A stretch of 8,099 bases of DNA from an uncultured archaeon (GTDB taxonomy: Archaea; Iainarchaeota; Iainarchaeia; Iainarchaeales; CSSED10-239), in the NCBI GenBank assembly GCA_964463155.1, contig CAYXAY010000032.1, positions 1-8,099 on the forward strand. Reading direction: 5' to 3'. Positions 2,584 to 7,863 of this stretch are shown piece by piece (the stretch's first letter is position 1; every line of letters begins with the position of its first letter). A model generated the notes under the pieces. It saw only the letters and a program-made list of their open reading frames with translations, did not search any database and was not told the origin of the DNA. Position numbers and translations under genes: made by a program.

Positions 2584-3120
2584 ATGAAAGACCATTATGA
2601 AATTGAAGTTAAAGTTTTAGAGATTAACAAAAAAGAACTAGAAAGGAAACTAAAAGAAATAGGTGCAAAGAGGCTTTTCTCTTATAGAAAAATTATACAA
2701 GAAAACTATGAGAACTCTGAACTAAAAAAGAAAAGTGCAGCAATAAGAGTAAGACAACTCGGCAAAGAGGTTTTTATAACATTTAAGCAATTTAAAGAAA
2801 TAAAAAATAATATTAAATGTTGTAGAGAAATAGAGTTTCAAGCAGTTTCTGATTTTAAAACGATTCAAAATATTTTCACTTTTCTTGGCCTAAAAAGATA
2901 TCACAGGATAGAAAAAACAAGAACAACCTATATTCTTGGAACAACAACCTTTGACATAGACAGCATATCAAAACCATTCAAGATTCCTTGCTATTATGAG
3001 ATAGAGACAAAAACCTATAAAGACATAGATAAGATATTAAAGCAATTAGATGTTCCAAAAGAAAAGGTCTTGCCATGGGGAACAAAGCAACTTTTAGCTT
3101 ATTATAAAAAACTAATTTAA
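2584..3120 (+). CDS. CYTH-domain protein (CyaB-like class IV adenylate cyclase / triphosphate tunnel metalloenzyme family)
   Basis: 178 aa. N-terminal ExExK signature YEIEVK (nt 2599-2613). The remaining CYTH beta-strand motifs follow in order: AIRVRQ, ITFK, REIEFQ, IEKTRTTY, FDID, YYEIE. Confidence 0.85.
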   Translation: MKDHYEIEVKVLEINKKELERKLKEIGAKRLFSYRKIIQENYENSELKKKSAAIRVRQLGKEVFITFKQFKEIKNNIKCCREIEFQAVSDFKTIQNIFTFLGLKRYHRIEKTRTTYILGTTTFDIDSISKPFKIPCYYEIETKTYKDIDKILKQLDVPKEKVLPWGTKQLLAYYKKLI

Positions 3121-3594
3121 AAGAACAATCCAAAGATACAGGATTGTTGCAAAACATAACCAAACAAGATATGGTATCAAAAGATATGCTGCTTTCTCAT
3201 TTAGTTGATAGAACTTGATTATGGTTATTGAAACAAAACCAACAAGAACAAATATACAAATTAAACCAAAGACTGGTGATTCTAAGCCAAAGAACAGAAA
3301 TGACCAAGCAATATTGAGTATTAATTGTAAGCTAAAGAAAAGCATCGCTGATTTTTTTATTTCTGGATCTCTTCTGTATTTTTGTGGTTGTGACCAGACA
3401 ATGTAAAGTGCTAGACCCATCAAGATATAAAGAGTTGTCCAAACAATTGGAAAAACAAAATTTGGTGGAGTAATTGGTGGCTTGATTAGTGTCTCATACC
3501 AAGAACCAGGCCCGGTTTCTGTAACTAAAGAGCCAATAAATCCTGCCCCCAGGCATATTAAAATCGACACAGGAAATTTCCAATAATCTTTCAT
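3112..3594 (-). CDS. tspO: TspO/MBR family tryptophan-rich sensory protein (5-TM)
   Basis: 160 aa. Hallmark N-terminal region GAGFIGSLVT...GSWYETLIKPPITPPNFVFPIVWTTLYILMGLALYIVW, then NIAWSFLFFG. About five hydrophobic helices. The 3' end overlaps the CYTH gene 3' end by 9 nt (3112-3120). Confidence 0.9.
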   Translation of the reverse strand: MKDYWKFPVSILICLGAGFIGSLVTETGPGSWYETLIKPPITPPNFVFPIVWTTLYILMGLALYIVWSQPQKYRRDPEIKKSAMLFFSLQLILNIAWSFLFFGLESPVFGLICIFVLVGFVSITIIKFYQLNEKAAYLLIPYLVWLCFATILYLWIVLLN

Positions 3595-3637
3595 AAAATA
3601 TCACTCATAAATATATCTATTCTTGCAACAAAAGCAA

Positions 3638-3647
3638 TTTAAATATA
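3638..3647 (+). promoter_or_regulatory. TATA-box candidate for the small Cys-tail membrane protein gene
   Basis: TTTAAATATA lies in the divergent tspO/3710 intergenic region. The predicted TSS near 3670 leaves a roughly 40-nt leader carrying GAGGAG (3695-3700) before GTG 3710. Confidence 0.3.
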
Positions 3648-3709
3648 TGGAGTATATATATTATACAAAGAAATTTACAATTATAAAAATAATAAGAGGA
3701 GAAAAAAAT

Positions 3710-3937
3710 GTGGATAAAGAAAAAAATGAAAACCCAACAGTTGCTTTAGCAGGAACTATTTGTGCTTTTGCAGTAGGTATTGCAGCTTTAATTGTAATCT
3801 TTGCAAAAAATTATGCTTGGATAATTATATTTACAACATTAACTTTGTGTTTCTTTGGAATAGCACTAGCAAAGAAAGATTGTTCTTGTGGTCCAAATTG
3901 TGAATGTAATACAAAACCAAAAGATAAAAAAAAATGA
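3710..3937 (+). CDS. Small 2-TM membrane protein with Cys-rich C-terminal tail (CSCGPNCEC); start uncertain
   Basis: The ORF is open from 3623 (TTG), with an in-frame ATG at 3647. A GTG at 3710 sits 9 nt after the only strong SD-like element in the window (GAGGAG, 3695-3700) and downstream of a TATA box at 3638-3645. Two hydrophobic helices (TVALAGTICAFAVGIAALIVIFA and WIIIFTTLTLCFFGIALA) are followed by KKDCSCGPNCECNTKPKDKKK. Confidence 0.5.
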   Translation: MDKEKNENPTVALAGTICAFAVGIAALIVIFAKNYAWIIIFTTLTLCFFGIALAKKDCSCGPNCECNTKPKDKKK

Positions 3938-3947
3938 TGCTTAAATT

Positions 3948-4346
3948 ATGCCAACATTAAGACCAGCAAGAAGATTATCTTCTAAAGTCCTTGAAGATAT
4001 GAAAAAAAAGAGAATAGAGAAATCAAAGCCAAAAGTGCCTATTGATTATCAAACAAAAATATTAAGAGTTGATGCTGAAATTAAAGCTCTTAAGATTATT
4101 TCAGAATACGATTCTAAATTAATGAAAGGATTTACAGTTAACACTTTAGAGCAGATGAAAATAAATATTTCTGATTTACTAAAAAAAATAACAGAAGAAA
4201 TAGAGATATTAAAGAAAGCAAAATTAGAAAGAAGCAATCTTGCTGGCTTGAATATAGAGATAACTAATTTTGAAAGACAAAAGAAAGAATCAGAAAAGAT
4301 TATTGCTATTCTTGAATCTAAAATTAAAGAAAAAACAAGACAATAA
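3948..4346 (+). CDS. Hypothetical coiled-coil protein (basic N-terminus, Lys/Glu-rich helices)
   Basis: 132-aa ORF, 10 nt after the preceding stop. Heptad-like K/E/I/L-rich sequence. No motif I can recognise. An oligo-T tract (TTCTTTTTATT) follows the stop. Confidence 0.55.
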   Translation: MPTLRPARRLSSKVLEDMKKKRIEKSKPKVPIDYQTKILRVDAEIKALKIISEYDSKLMKGFTVNTLEQMKINISDLLKKITEEIEILKKAKLERSNLAGLNIEITNFERQKKESEKIIAILESKIKEKTRQ

Positions 4347-4365
4347 TTCTTTTTATTCTAAAAAC

Positions 4366-4375
4366 ATATATAAAT
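4366..4375 (+). promoter_or_regulatory. TATA-box candidate for the 4397 gene (leaderless geometry)
   Basis: ATATATAAAT is centred about 27 nt upstream of ATG 4397. No SD-like sequence lies in between. Confidence 0.35.
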
Positions 4376-4396
4376 CTTATTCTCTTTATATTTAAT

Positions 4397-4825
4397 ATGA
4401 ATAAAGGGTCTAAAATTTTTGTAATTGTATTATTAGCAATAATACTTATCTCTATTGTTTATATATTTAATAATAAAATTAATGATCTAGAAGACAAATA
4501 TAATATTCTAAATAATAAATATATAAAACTAAATCAAGAACATGAGCAACTTATTGAAGAAAAGCAAGAATTAGAAGATCAATTTAATAATCTTACAGCT
4601 GATTTTAAAGACTTAACAGAAAATTACAATTCTAAGGTCTTAGAAAACAAAGAAAAAGATCAAGAAATTAATTCTTTAACAAACAACTATAATAATGTTT
4701 TAGAAAACTATCAAACTCTTAATAACGAAGTAGGAATATTTAAAACAAGAATAGAAGAATCTATGGATTGGTTTAAGAATAATTCTACTCTTGATAATCT
4801 TTCAAATCAAAGAATTATAAAATAA
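4397..4825 (+). CDS. N-terminal portion of a TM-anchored coiled-coil protein; apparently continues in another frame (see 4821-5519)
   Basis: 142-aa ORF. Signal-anchor helix IFVIVLLAIILISIVYIF, then about 100 aa of N/E/K/L-rich coiled coil with an internal LTxNYNxxVLEN duplication. A TATA-like ATATATAAAT (4366-4375) lies about 27 nt upstream of the ATG, which suggests a leaderless mRNA. The ORF ends at TAA 4823-4825, immediately where frame 0 opens. Confidence 0.6.
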   Translation: MNKGSKIFVIVLLAIILISIVYIFNNKINDLEDKYNILNNKYIKLNQEHEQLIEEKQELEDQFNNLTADFKDLTENYNSKVLENKEKDQEINSLTNNYNNVLENYQTLNNEVGIFKTRIEESMDWFKNNSTLDNLSNQRIIK

Positions 4826-5519
4826 TCTTAAAAAATGTGTAACTTGTGAAGATGATTTATGTTATATAAAAACAGCATGTATTTATGTTATTAATCAAGA
4901 AGAACTAAATCTAAAATCTGCATTAGATTCTCAAACTTCAGGACAAGAAGACAAATTACAAACACTTGAGCAATTTCTTTTACAAAAAAAAGGAGACTGT
5001 GAGGATTTTTCTTTGTTTTTTGCTGCAGAGTTAAGATATTTGATTGAGTATGTTAGTTCTCAAGAAAAAACACCAATCATTGAAGCAATTGTAGAATCAG
5101 ATACTTCCAGAAGTTATGAAATTGTTGGCAGATGGTATTACCCTGAAGGTATAGAAAAAAAAATAATTTCTAAAGAATATAGTTATCCTTATGTTGCTGG
5201 TGGTAATATTTTTGATCCTAATACTCAAGAGATTGGAGGACATTGTTTGATAATGCTTTCAGAAGAAGAAATAAATGAAAGTCAAGATATTGAAGACTTA
5301 GACGACATAGAATTACTAGAACCACAAAACGGATTATATATTGGAAAAGCTAAAAACAATGGAATATTTGAAACAAAAAATTCAGAAAATCAAGTTGGGC
5401 AAATAATCACAAGTGCTGATTATTATATGCACAATTCCATTCTTTATAGCAATAATACAGAAAGTCATTGGTATAGTTCTGGTTATTATTACAATAAGAT
5501 TATAGAATTAGAACAATAA
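4821..5519 (+). CDS. C-terminal portion: transglutaminase-like / BTLCP-like cysteine peptidase core, lacking its own start codon (frameshifted gene or pseudogene)
   Basis: Frame 0 is open from 4821 and reads NNLKKCVTCEDDLCYIKTACIYVINQEELNLKSALDSQTSGQEDKLQTLEQFLLQKKGDCEDFSLFFAAELRYL... The first possible start in this frame is TTG 5013, which falls after the catalytic-Cys-type motif GDCEDFS (Cys codon 4998-5000). The candidate His is in GGHCLIML (5241-5243) and the candidate acid in LLEPQN (5319-5321). Confidence 0.55.
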   Translation, partial: NNLKKCVTCEDDLCYIKTACIYVINQEELNLKSALDSQTSGQEDKLQTLEQFLLQKKGDCEDFSLFFAAELRYLIEYVSSQEKTPIIEAIVESDTSRSYEIVGRWYYPEGIEKKIISKEYSYPYVAGGNIFDPNTQEIGGHCLIMLSEEEINESQDIEDLDDIELLEPQNGLYIGKAKNNGIFETKNSENQVGQIITSADYYMHNSILYSNNTESHWYSSGYYYNKIIELEQ

Positions 5520-5561
5520 ATTAATTATTTTATAATAACTCCCTTTTTGTGTTTTAATTGA

Positions 5562-5601
5562 TTTTCGGGTAAATAATTATCGCGATTAGAATCACCGAAA
5601 A
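5562..5601. terminator. Inverted repeat TTTTCGG / CCGAAAA (7-bp stem, 26-nt loop containing the palindrome ATCGCGAT) between convergent genes; possible bidirectional terminator or protein-binding site
   Basis: Stem arms are 5562-5568 and 5595-5601, and the loop palindrome is 5579-5586. An oligo-T tract CCCTTTTTGTGTTTT (5541-5555) lies just upstream on the + strand, the usual archaeal termination signal. Confidence 0.25.
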
Positions 5602-5641
5602 ATATTGTTTATGGAGATTTAAATCACAATACGTTTTCTTA

Positions 5642-6316
5642 CTATTTTAATTTCTTTTCTAATTGATCATAGTATTCTAAGCTTAGCTTTCTTATGTCTT
5701 TTAGTATTGGAATAACAATTTTTCTATCCTCTAAAAGATTTAATCTTTCTTCAAACCAAGTTATCCAAACATCTTTTCCTGATTTTTTCACTTGATATTT
5801 GATTTCATCTAAGATAACATTCCAGTTAGGGTTTGTTCTAGCAATTGATTGACAATCGCCAATATCTCCATCTCTGTCTGTGATGCTTTTGAAAACTAAG
5901 ATGTCTTCTAAGGAACAAGCAAATAGTTTTATGTTTTTATATTCTTTTATTAGTTTAGCTCTTTTAATCATGTTATCGCTAAGAAACAGATTATTACATA
6001 CAATTTTATTAAAAATATCAAATCTGTAGTTGTCTTTGATTAGTATATTTTCTAAATTTAGTTTGTGGTATTCTCTTGTTGGTTTTTCAAGTGTGAAATC
6101 ATTTTTCTTGAGTGTATTGATCAATGATTCATATTCTTCTTTAGAATTAACAATCAAGTCTATGTCTTTTGTTCCTGGTTTAAGGTTGTGATAAAGAAGT
6201 ACTGCTCCGCCTATCAGGTAGACATTTATCTTATTTCTAATATTTTTGTTAATTTCATCGAATGCTTCAGATATTTGAGTAAAATCAGTTATATATTTTT
6301 CCATTTTATTAATCAC
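5642..6316 (-). CDS. Pol-beta-superfamily nucleotidyltransferase, minimal (about 220 aa); putative toxin/effector of an AbiE-like pair
   Basis: The signature LIGGAVLLYHNLKPGTKDIDLIV (nt 6158-6211) fits G[GS]-x(9-13)-DxD. The probable third acidic residue is in YRFDIF. The C-terminal helical part with VFKSITDRDGDIGDCQSI resembles the K..R.kD..D motif of archaeal DUF2204/DUF6036-type NTases (from memory). The start is GTG 6316 overlapping the upstream TGA (GTGA), or ATG 6304, 8 nt after it. Confidence 0.7.
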   Translation of the reverse strand: MINKMEKYITDFTQISEAFDEINKNIRNKINVYLIGGAVLLYHNLKPGTKDIDLIVNSKEEYESLINTLKKNDFTLEKPTREYHKLNLENILIKDNYRFDIFNKIVCNNLFLSDNMIKRAKLIKEYKNIKLFACSLEDILVFKSITDRDGDIGDCQSIARTNPNWNVILDEIKYQVKKSGKDVWITWFEERLNLLEDRKIVIPILKDIRKLSLEYYDQLEKKLK

Positions 6317-7257
6317 ATCTTTATATCATATACTTTTGCTTTTTCTTTTATTTCTTTTAGTGGAGGATATCTTTCTATTTTTTCTCCAGAAAAGATTCTA
6401 TTTAGATTATCTAGTATTTCGTGTTTAATATCTTTAAATTCATTTTTATATTTATAGTAATAGAAAGCAAGATACATTCTATCTCTAAATTCTTTTGTTT
6501 TTTCTACAATTGCTAAGGTGTGTAGTAGTATATCTTGCTTAGTTAGTTGTTTCTTTGGTAGGTAATAGAAGTTTTCAAGAGTATAGATAAGTAGGTTATA
6601 GTCTTTAAACGCAGAAAAGGAAGTTAATGTTGCATCTATATTTTGTTTTATTGAAAACACTATTTCTTTTTCGTTTTTGTAGTAAATTGTTGAACCAACA
6701 GGCACTCTATAATCATAGTTATCTTGAAAACTTTTATATTCTTTTAAAAAATCAATTAAATCTGGCCAAACACTATAATTAACTATATATTCTTTATTTT
6801 CTTTAATAAATATAGATCTTCCTTGTGCTTTTTTTATAAATTGTTTTATAGTTATTTCTTTTAGTCCTGTTTCTTTTACGATTTCTGTTATTGTTTTTTT
6901 ATCAAGGGCAGTAGTTAGTATTTTTATTCCAGAGTTAGGTAATATTTCGATTAGATTTTTATTTACAAGTAGTTTTCTTAATTTCAAAGCAAAAGGATAT
7001 TCTGAGACAGAAAGTTTTTGTTTATCTTTAGTTATTAGTTTTTCTCTTATAAGTACACCAATCATTTCACTTATATGTGTTTTATTCATTTTAATATTTT
7101 CAAGTATTTTACTTAATCTGTTATTTCCTTGACAGATTTCATAAAACACAAGTAATTGAGTTCTCGTAAACATAAGTATATTTATATCCGAACTACATAT
7201 AAATGATTCGGTTTTCAGCACATTTTTAGTAGTGCATTCTAATATATTTAAAAGCAA
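6313..7257 (-). CDS. Tandem winged-helix (MarR/TrmB-like) DNA-binding protein with about 150-aa C-terminal domain of unknown family; putative regulator/antitoxin partner of the NTase
   Basis: wHTH-like segment 1 is FTRTQLLVFYEICQGNNRLSKILENIKMNKTHISEMIGVLIREKLI. Segment 2 is KKTITEIVKETGLKEITIKQFIKKAQGRSIFI. The track start is TTG 7257. ATG 7173 (MFTRTQLL...) is more plausible because a minus-strand TATA-like TTTAAATAT (about 7242-7250) lies inside the TTG extension. The gene is translationally coupled to the NTase gene. Confidence 0.7.
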   Translation of the reverse strand: MLLNILECTTKNVLKTESFICSSDINILMFTRTQLLVFYEICQGNNRLSKILENIKMNKTHISEMIGVLIREKLITKDKQKLSVSEYPFALKLRKLLVNKNLIEILPNSGIKILTTALDKKTITEIVKETGLKEITIKQFIKKAQGRSIFIKENKEYIVNYSVWPDLIDFLKEYKSFQDNYDYRVPVGSTIYYKNEKEIVFSIKQNIDATLTSFSAFKDYNLLIYTLENFYYLPKKQLTKQDILLHTLAIVEKTKEFRDRMYLAFYYYKYKNEFKDIKHEILDNLNRIFSGEKIERYPPLKEIKEKAKVYDIKM

Positions 7258-7328
7258 GTTTTTGAAATTTTGTAAAATTGAGAAAACATAACTTTTTTTA
7301 ACACAATTACAAAAAATCTAGACGGCAG

Positions 7329-7338
7329 ATTTAAATAG
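7329..7338. promoter_or_regulatory. Palindromic archaeal TATA-box candidate (ATTTAAAT core) in the divergent intergenic region between the HTH-NTase operon and hicBA
   Basis: GATTTAAATAGG matches the TTTAWATA consensus. The ATTTAAAT core reads the same on both strands. It sits 56 nt upstream of hicB ATG 7393 and 72 nt upstream of the minus-strand TTG 7257. Confidence 0.35.
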
Positions 7339-7348
7339 GTGGAGATAC

Positions 7349-7377
7349 ATGATTTACATATATTTTTAATGATTTAC
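7349..7377 (+). repeat. Direct repeat ATGATTTAC x2 (7349-7357 and 7369-7377), 20-nt periodicity, between the TATA box and the hicB start; possible operator
   Basis: The exact 9-mer is seen twice, two helical turns apart. In such an AT-rich spacer this is not statistically compelling alone. Confidence 0.25.
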
Positions 7378-7392
7378 TAGTTTAATAACTAT

Positions 7393-7623
7393 ATGAAAGG
7401 AAAGAGAAAGAAAATGGAAACTACATATAATATAATTATTGAGAAAGACAAAGCTGGTTGGTATATTGCAGAAGTTTTAGAATTACCTGGCTGTTATTCT
7501 CAAGCAAAAAGCATGGATGAATTAGTTAAGAGAACAAGAGAAGCAATTAAATGTCATTTACTTGAATCTAAGATAGAGGTTCCTGTTTCTAATTTTATCG
7601 GAATACAACAATTAAGGGTGTAA
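7393..7623 (+). CDS. hicB: HicB-family antitoxin (UPF0150 / partial RNase H-like fold), N-terminal domain only with no RHH/HTH DNA-binding extension
   Basis: YNIIIEKDKAGWYIAEVLELPGCYSQAKSMDELVKRTREAIKCHL matches the classic pattern y.v.ie.d.dG.y.a.vp.lpGc.sqG.t.eEa..n..eAi. The alternative start ATG 7414 (METTYN...) gives a more family-typical 69 aa. Confidence 0.9.
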   Translation: MKGKRKKMETTYNIIIEKDKAGWYIAEVLELPGCYSQAKSMDELVKRTREAIKCHLLESKIEVPVSNFIGIQQLRV

Positions 7624-7629
7624 ATCCTT

Positions 7630-7863
7630 TTGAAAGAATTACCTTTGTTAACTGGAAAAGAATTAGGAAAGGTAATAGTTAAACTAGGTTATAAGTATGA
7701 CCACACTTCTGGAAGCCATATGACCTTTATTAATTTAAAAGAAAACAAGAAGATAACGATTCCAAACCACGGTTCTGAATCAATAAGGCCTGGGCTTCTT
7801 CTAAAGATAATAAAGAAAGACCTAGGAATAACAAAAGAAGAATTCCTAGAACTATTAAAATAG
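7630..7863 (+). CDS. hicA: HicA-family mRNA interferase toxin (YcfA-like)
   Basis: TGKELGKVIVKLGYKYDHTSGSHMTFIN...KITIPNHGSESIRPGLLLKIIKKDLGITKEEFLELL has the GSH catalytic-His motif and the IP.H...i..g.l..Ilk..gi tail. TTG start 6 nt after the hicB stop. Confidence 0.9.
   Translation: MKELPLLTGKELGKVIVKLGYKYDHTSGSHMTFINLKENKKITIPNHGSESIRPGLLLKIIKKDLGITKEEFLELLK

Follow-up and report, generated by a model that had tools for sequence, protein, structure and literature searches.

Has a gene in the genome of an uncultured archaeon really been broken, or does it only look broken in the assembly? The question is raised by positions 4397 to 5519 of the window, the 8,099-nt stretch of DNA that we analyzed, which is the whole of contig C32 (CAYXAY010000032.1) of assembly GCA_964463155.1 (Iainarchaeota; Iainarchaeia; Iainarchaeales; CSSED10-239). 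The genome assembly is 726 kb in 48 contigs and 87% complete, and the window is AT-rich, with 22-38% G+C in 500-nt windows. An earlier note, made from the DNA alone, read these positions as a membrane-anchored, coiled-coil cysteine-peptidase gene split by a +1 frameshift, and offered three causes: a sequencing or assembly error, a recent inactivating mutation, or programmed +1 frameshifting. We think that the locus is probably a genuine, fairly recent pseudogene of an accessory gene. Its features are given below; residue numbers are those of the intact 374-aa protein, and substitutions are called private if they are unique to the window in comparison with five distinct alleles of close relatives.

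4397..4825, + strand: 5' fragment, a 142-codon open reading frame (ORF) encoding an N-terminal membrane anchor followed by a long coiled-coil stalk (ORF listing, translation)
4415..4468, + strand: hydrophobic signal-anchor helix, residues ~7-24, IFVIVLLAIILISIVYIF, with the basic stretch MNKGSK before it (read from the sequence)
4815, + strand: private C>T, changing ACT to ATT (T140I), 4 nt ahead of the shortened A run; C in 15/15 close relatives
4819..4822, + strand: frameshift site, A4 in the window and A6 in 15/15 close relatives; 2-nt loss, net +1
4821..5519, + strand: 3' fragment in the other frame, 232 codons plus stop, encoding a Cys-rich knuckle and a LapG-like (transglutaminase-like) domain
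4918, + strand: private A>C, giving Y175S; the Tyr replaced is conserved to at least 90% in the family and is aligned to a LapG Tyr
4992..5006, + strand: G-D-C-E-D motif, with the predicted nucleophile Cys, C202, at 4998-5000
5013..5519, + strand: 168-aa ORF from TTG 5013, as in the public record, beginning past the nucleophile Cys
5199, + strand: private T>G, giving C269G; all 114 aligned family members have this Cys
5241..5243, + strand: predicted catalytic His, H283 within GGHC, invariant in 114 sequences
5319..5327, + strand: E-P-Q (E309, P310, Q311), candidate third catalytic or oxyanion residues; E309 and Q311 invariant
5479, + strand: private A>C, Y362S; this Tyr, in W-Y-S-Y-G, is at least 90% conserved in the family

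One gene in relatives, two fragments in the window

All of the coordinates in the earlier note proved exact (ORF 4397-4825, stop 4818-4820, open frame 4821-5519, TTG 5013, A4 run 4819-4822). The 5' fragment ends at a premature TAA (4823-4825), itself a product of the frameshift, and differs by one amino acid from residues 1-142 of the intact orthologue P0023. The 3' frame follows its own stop (TAA, 4818-4820), stays open from 4821 to 5519, and encodes the Cys cluster CVTCEDDLCYIKTAC, the motif KKGDCEDFSLFFAAELR, GGHCLIML, and LLEPQN. Its first ATG, GTG, or TTG is TTG 5013, downstream of the G-D-C-E-D codons, so that the catalytic Cys motif does lie upstream of any start codon, as had been noted. 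Over the 64 start-less codons (4821-5012), identity to the corresponding part of intact orthologues is 97%, and the stretch is therefore more than a chance open frame.

In relatives, both fragments belong to one reading frame. A search with the 232-aa downstream frame returned 19 proteins, all between 299 and 404 aa long and 17 of them at least 351 aa, at query covers of 92-100%. Among 40 related genomes, 11 have a match, none with an internal stop within it, and the open frames in these genomes are 312-412 aa long, except for one weak partial match at a contig end, in a genome of another family. In the nearest genome, G009 of the same genus, the gene is a 374-aa ORF with syntenic surroundings, and the 90%-identity cluster holds four further 374-aa alleles. 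Our close-relative set comprised 15 contigs from NCBI, ENA, JGI, and Logan assemblies, at 94-97% DNA identity and with 5 alleles. Farther away, 147 tblastn-confirmed loci in GTDB species are each a single ORF, and nearly all of the 183 clusters found at E<=1e-30 are 340-420 aa long. The claim that one gene has been split by a frameshift is thus borne out by orthologues that are all single ORFs; orthologues arranged as two genes with starts of their own were not found among the relatives searched.

What happened at the junction is a little different from what the earlier note proposed. The junction reads ACTATAAAAAATAAT (also given as AGAACTATAAAAAATAATCTT) in 15/15 close relatives and ATTATAAAATAAT (also given as AGAATTATAAAATAATCTT) in the window, and the intact 374-aa protein runs ...NQRTIKNNLKK... 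(...NQRTIKNNLKKCVTC...) across it. On sequence comparison, the lesion is a 2-nt loss in an A6 run plus a nearby C>T, rather than a 1-nt insertion, because the run is A6 in each of the 15 close relatives and A4 in the window. Removing one A from the run, as had been suggested, does fuse the frames arithmetically, but it does not retrace the historical change.

The public record carries the tail of this gene as a protein in its own right. The 168-aa protein P0026 (NCBI) falls in a cluster of 374-aa proteins, and the ORF from TTG 5013 is an annotation artefact of the frameshift. Its start was probably placed there because the G-D-C-E-D codons (GGAGACTGTGAGGAT, window 4988-5012) happen to make a Shine-Dalgarno-like GGAG...GAGG 11 nt ahead of the TTG. 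A non-canonical start for separate translation of the 3' frame was also considered and rejected: there is no ATG, GTG, or TTG before 5013, and the Shine-Dalgarno-like bases are the codons of the motif.

The gene is patchily distributed, being present in 5/10 genomes of the genus and in 10/21 other searched genomes of the family, and a search of this genome found no second copy. Given this patchy presence and the decay in the window, the gene is accessory and dispensable.

A probable pseudogene, and the alternatives to it

How would the locus have come to its present state? In relatives, the gene would encode a 374-aa type-II membrane protein consisting of an anchor, a coiled-coil stalk of ~100 residues, a four-Cys knuckle, and an extracellular LapG-like cysteine-peptidase domain, in which the G-D-C-E-D nucleophile/Ca2+ motif is accompanied by a His and an E-P-Q that are both invariant. 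In this genome, two bases would have been lost from the A6 run of the linker that joins the stalk to the globular part, leaving the A4 at 4819-4822. Translation would halt at TAA 4823, past the stalk, with the catalytic domain stranded in the other frame without a usable start, and the remaining product would be at most a 142-aa anchor-plus-stalk stub. Since the break, or shortly before it, the catalytic part would have drifted, acquiring Y175S, C269G, and Y362S. Of the three causes first offered, a recent inactivating mutation is the one we favor, because the part beyond the break has lost conserved residues as well, and we infer that the lesion arose by real mutation rather than technically.

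The private changes are the evidence for this drift. Counts of private nonsynonymous (N) and synonymous (S) substitutions are as follows.

Split gene, 5' of the break: 1 N / 5 S
Split gene, 3' of the break: 7 N / 6 S
DUF6036 neighbor: 6 N / 23 S
orf314 neighbor: 8 N / 15 S
HicA neighbor: 6 N / 19 S

Downstream of the break, the ratio of 7/6 differs from the 21/62 obtained by pooling the three neighbors with the 5' part of the gene itself (Fisher p=0.049). The seven downstream replacements are E153D, E154D, Y175S, N221S, C269G, N304D, and Y362S. Three of these hit residues (Y175, C269, and Y362) that are all invariant in a 21-sequence alignment. In a broader, 114-sequence family alignment with a mean column identity of ~22%, C269 is one of only eight invariant columns (G200, D201, C202, C269, H283, C284, E309, and Q311), and Y175 and Y362 are at least 90% conserved. 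Conserved columns make up 25 of the 232, and random placement would put at least three of the seven replacements on them with P=0.03. Three such losses are not expected at all in a protein under selection. As a control, none of the five private replacements in the intact neighbor DUF6036 falls on its 54 conserved columns of 220. The pairwise ratio of nonsynonymous to synonymous differences (pN/pS) of the flanking genes is 0.06-0.19, which argues that the contig is not generally error-laden.

Several observations weigh against a pseudogene. The N/S contrast is borderline (p ~0.05) and comes from 13 changes. The whole-gene pairwise pN/pS of the 3' part is still low, at 0.10-0.17, from which it follows that any drift is recent. 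The A4 allele is known from one contig only and was found in no other assembly; an exact-pattern search of JGI metagenome contigs gave 0 matches to it. Finally, Y175S, C269G, and Y362S are all A:T>C:G transversions, and such changes can also arise as base-calling errors. The A5/A6 pattern, searched for in the JGI metagenome contigs, occurred in 2 contigs only, both of them already-known intact alleles, and an exact public-assembly look-up of both fragment products, from which records of this genome itself may be missing, found no match.

The solitary allele and the uniform transversions are also what a sequencing or assembly artefact would predict. In that case, the organism would have the intact A6 and a functional 374-aa protein, and the A4, perhaps with some of the private substitutions, would be low-coverage errors. 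We regard this as unlikely, though plausible enough to be taken seriously: the lesion lies inside a homopolymer, the genome is a metagenome-assembled genome (MAG) in many contigs and incomplete, and a sister MAG's contig of the locus has ~6x coverage, going by the contig name. Set against this, a run just 6 long differs by 2 nt and has a linked substitution 4 nt from it, a combination that short-read data rarely give, and short reads are what the assembly appears to be made of, since its N runs mark it as gapped scaffolds. Although 3242 A/T runs of 6 or more occur in the assembly, a strict scan for split genes (an ORF ending where a long start-less frame begins) found this gene and one N-gap case only, and the assembly is not prone to homopolymer errors. 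The flanking genes show the normal pattern of purifying selection, and the neighbor used as a control has no conserved-residue changes. Because the contig is otherwise clean, an error model must put the frameshift and three conserved-residue changes into one 700-nt stretch.

Programmed recoding or phase variation, whether through +1 ribosomal frameshifting at AAA-UAA, slippage in transcription, or an A run whose length switches expression on and off, is very improbable. The 5-nt overlap of the frames (4821-4825), with its A run and stop, formally permits a +1 shift at AAA-U, and surface-protein genes are often phase-variable. However, the shift is conserved in 0/15 close relatives and in none of more than 140 distant ones, all of which are in frame, so the earlier note's option of programmed +1 frameshifting is effectively refuted. 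As for phase variation, A4 or A6 is far shorter than runs known to slip, and the A4 and A5/A6 pattern searches turned up no allele of intermediate length. Loss of an invariant Cys and two conserved Tyr from the downstream frame would also be unexpected in a product still in use. That the locus holds two independent genes, a small anchor/coiled-coil protein and a soluble 168-aa protein from TTG 5013, is hardly credible: the publicly recorded 168-aa product and the GGAG...GAGG ahead of its start speak for it, but the Shine-Dalgarno-like bases are merely motif codons, the 64 codons before the TTG are conserved as protein, complete with the four-Cys knuckle and invariant G-D-C, and the split arrangement occurs in no relative, the few shorter proteins of the searches standing outside this check.

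A genuine, recent pseudogene would be an ordinary one. Frameshift pseudogenes of reduced or symbiont genomes show the same small indel in a short homopolymer, followed by unconstrained substitutions, in a patchily distributed gene, and nothing sets the window's locus apart from them.

The intact protein and its relation to LapG

What would have been lost with the gene? We modeled the orthologue P0025 with AlphaFold2 (AF2) using 21 sequences, at a predicted local distance difference test score (pLDDT) of 86.9. In the model, a single helix (residues 3-128) comprises the membrane anchor (~7-24) and the stalk, and is followed by a small beta-hairpin/helix unit with C148, C151, C156, and C162, and then by a globular alpha/beta domain. 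C202 lies at the N terminus of helix 202-222, H283 lies on strand 279-289, and E309 ends strand 304-309. A Cys at a helix start and a His on a following strand are the usual papain-like/transglutaminase-like arrangement. Because a full-length fold search was swamped by coiled-coil proteins, the domain was folded alone, and the AF2 model of the window's 232-aa frame has a pLDDT of 84.4 and a predicted template modeling score (pTM) of 0.86.

The positive-inside rule would give the anchor an N-in, C-out topology, and the hydrophobic helix after MNKGSK, together with eight conserved Cys, suggests an extracytoplasmic location. Two of these Cys, C269 and C284, are opposite each other in the beta-hairpin that bears the catalytic His, in a register inferred from strands 264-274 and 279-289. 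Since they face each other in the hairpin, the model makes a C269-C284 disulfide next to the catalytic His likely. Ahead of the catalytic domain is a C-x2-C-x4-C-x5-C cluster (residues 148-162, window 4836-4880), in which C148, C156, and C162 are each conserved in at least 90% of the 114 sequences. The cluster may form a small zinc knuckle, or its Cys may pair as two disulfides; a match to a known module was not obtained.

Conservation in the 114 sequences is strongest around the predicted active site. No sequence departs from G200, D201, or C202, and conservation of E203 and D204 is at least 90%. After H283, the expected place holds no invariant Asp; in that part of the protein it is E309 and Q311 that are invariant, with D342 conserved to at least 90%. 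E309 and Q311 may be members of the triad. The earlier note had picked out GGHCLIML and LLEPQN as sources of the His and the acid, and the residues in question (H283, E309, and Q311) did turn out to be family-invariant. The family is large, with 859 cluster representatives at E<=1e-3, and the 147 GTDB loci carry the labels Iainarchaeum, Woesearchaeota, Nanoarchaeota/Nanobdellota, Micrarchaeota, Aenigmatarchaeota, and "uncultured archaeon". A search of the literature on DPANN and transglutaminase-like proteins found nothing on this gene family.

The resemblance to transglutaminase-like/BTLCP-type peptidases to which the note pointed is borne out as a relationship of the downstream part. The Pfam profile PF01841 (Transglut_core) scores 18.3 bits against the window fragment and 18.7 bits against an intact orthologue, short of the gathering threshold of 23 bits. 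All 21 members match it below threshold (18-19 bits in the two members tabulated; best E=2.7e-4), and the match covers the Cys half only (profile positions ~18-67 of 108), leaving the His/Asp half unmatched. None of the homologues has an entry in the precomputed Pfam field, and searching the PDB with the 3' fragment as a single sequence gave chance-level matches only. A profile of 21 sequences reached LapG (4fgo) at E=0.051, and one of 114 sequences reached it at E=2.4e-5, as the sole match that was not a coiled coil. The alignment spans from the conserved Tyr at the Y175 position to GGDCEDF, with Y-x-x-D upstream, and does not extend into the half that holds the His. Using Foldseek, we found LapG chains to be the top globular matches for both models, at the weak values of probability 0.75-0.97, E 0.02-0.3, and template modeling (TM) score 0.32-0.48. 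These values agree with a transglutaminase-like (papain-like) fold but are not significant by themselves. The next, weak neighbors in both searches were the Cytophaga hutchinsonii putative cysteine protease 3ISR, Streptococcus pyogenes TglA 9CRN, and CPR-C4 7PJO, which, all at E>0.08 and TM<0.3, support the general fold class only.

LapG-type enzymes need a C-H-D triad and, next to it, a calcium site formed by residues flanking the Cys (PMC4359373; PMC13090378); in DvhG this site includes D316 and E318 around C317, which were mutated and are required (PMC13090378). With LapG/BTLCP proteins (Legionella pneumophila LapG, PDB 4FGO/4FGP/4FGQ; Desulfovibrio vulgaris DvhG), the archaeal family shares ~45 residues of local homology ending in the nucleophile motif, where its consensus ...lkYkeD...kgGDCEDySL aligns with LapG ...NYETD...GGGDCEDFAI. 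At the sequence level, acidic residues flank its Cys at the positions of the DvhG Ca2+ site. As in LapG, the modeled Cys is at the start of a long helix with the invariant His on a following beta-strand, and the archaeal domain, like LapG, would lie outside the cytoplasmic membrane.

In other respects the two differ. The family is archaeal (DPANN) and not bacterial. Unlike the soluble, periplasmic LapG, it has an N-terminal membrane helix and a coiled-coil stalk of ~100 residues, as well as an extra four-Cys knuckle. Its Cys and His are ~80 residues apart, with an inserted beta-hairpin, and its third conserved position is E-P-Q, not a demonstrated Asp. Across 80 loci it has neither a LapD-like partner nor an adhesin beside it, nor any conserved neighbor at all; the window's copy, moreover, is broken. 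We therefore do not file the family as a BTLCP member; its sequences mark it as a remote relative of the LapG-type, transglutaminase-like cysteine peptidases, and it probably works like one.

Genomic setting and what the loss would mean

The peptidase gene sits in a rearranging accessory region. Gene order varies among close species (window 3112-7863 compared with L015 1144-7860). Contigs of the G009 type have hicB-hicA-tspO and an ABC transporter upstream of the peptidase gene, the window has tspO upstream and hicBA downstream of it, and in a third allele group (L013, L021-L026) the gene immediately upstream is a DUF7343 gene instead. Across the 80 loci, no neighboring gene is common to more than 12, and those that are shared are housekeeping genes. 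The window also carries MetRS and deoxyhypusine-synthase-like genes. Within it, the small membrane/Cys-tail ORF orf104 (3623-3937) differs from its relatives near the 5' end (codons 25-30); some relatives have TGA where the window has AGA, and relatives align over 249 nt only. The true start of orf104 is probably downstream of the listed TTG 3623.

Other gene breaks were found in the course of the comparison. The second candidate of the strict scan, on contig C4 of this genome (G000; - strand, ~29340-31358 in reverse-strand coordinates as scanned), is a 263-aa ORF followed by a 428-codon start-less frame adjoining an N run, and is probably a scaffold-gap artefact. A looser genome-wide scan was set aside, as it yielded only ordinary overlaps and antisense ORFs. 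The DUF6036 nucleotidyltransferase gene (5642-6316, - strand) is intact in the window, at 220-224 aa. In seven relatives' contigs (L013, L021-L026; JGI, ENA, and Logan), it has a shared 1-nt deletion at ~nt 397, outside any homopolymer, and the proteins called there are 131-135 aa long. A real frameshift allele seems to be circulating among sister strains, and, going by this shared deletion, genuine small-indel gene breaks do occur in the lineage.

The frameshift itself is a minor matter. It means that a public 168-aa "hypothetical protein" is the tail of a broken 374-aa gene, and it illustrates, on a small scale, the loss of a gene from a reduced archaeal genome. Of wider interest is the family, a widespread and unannotated DPANN protein whose catalytic-motif region is clearly LapG-related and is carried on an unusual anchor-plus-stalk architecture. 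LapG is the bacterial peptidase that releases biofilm adhesins. If active, the archaeal family would be a candidate cell-surface remodeler in organisms that live attached to other cells. It is a decidedly doubtful conjecture that these proteins are an archaeal counterpart of LapG, Ca2+-dependent stalked peptidases that would trim surface adhesins or host-cell envelope proteins and so control attachment or release in episymbiotic DPANN archaea. If that were true, the window would come from a strain that recently gave up this function.

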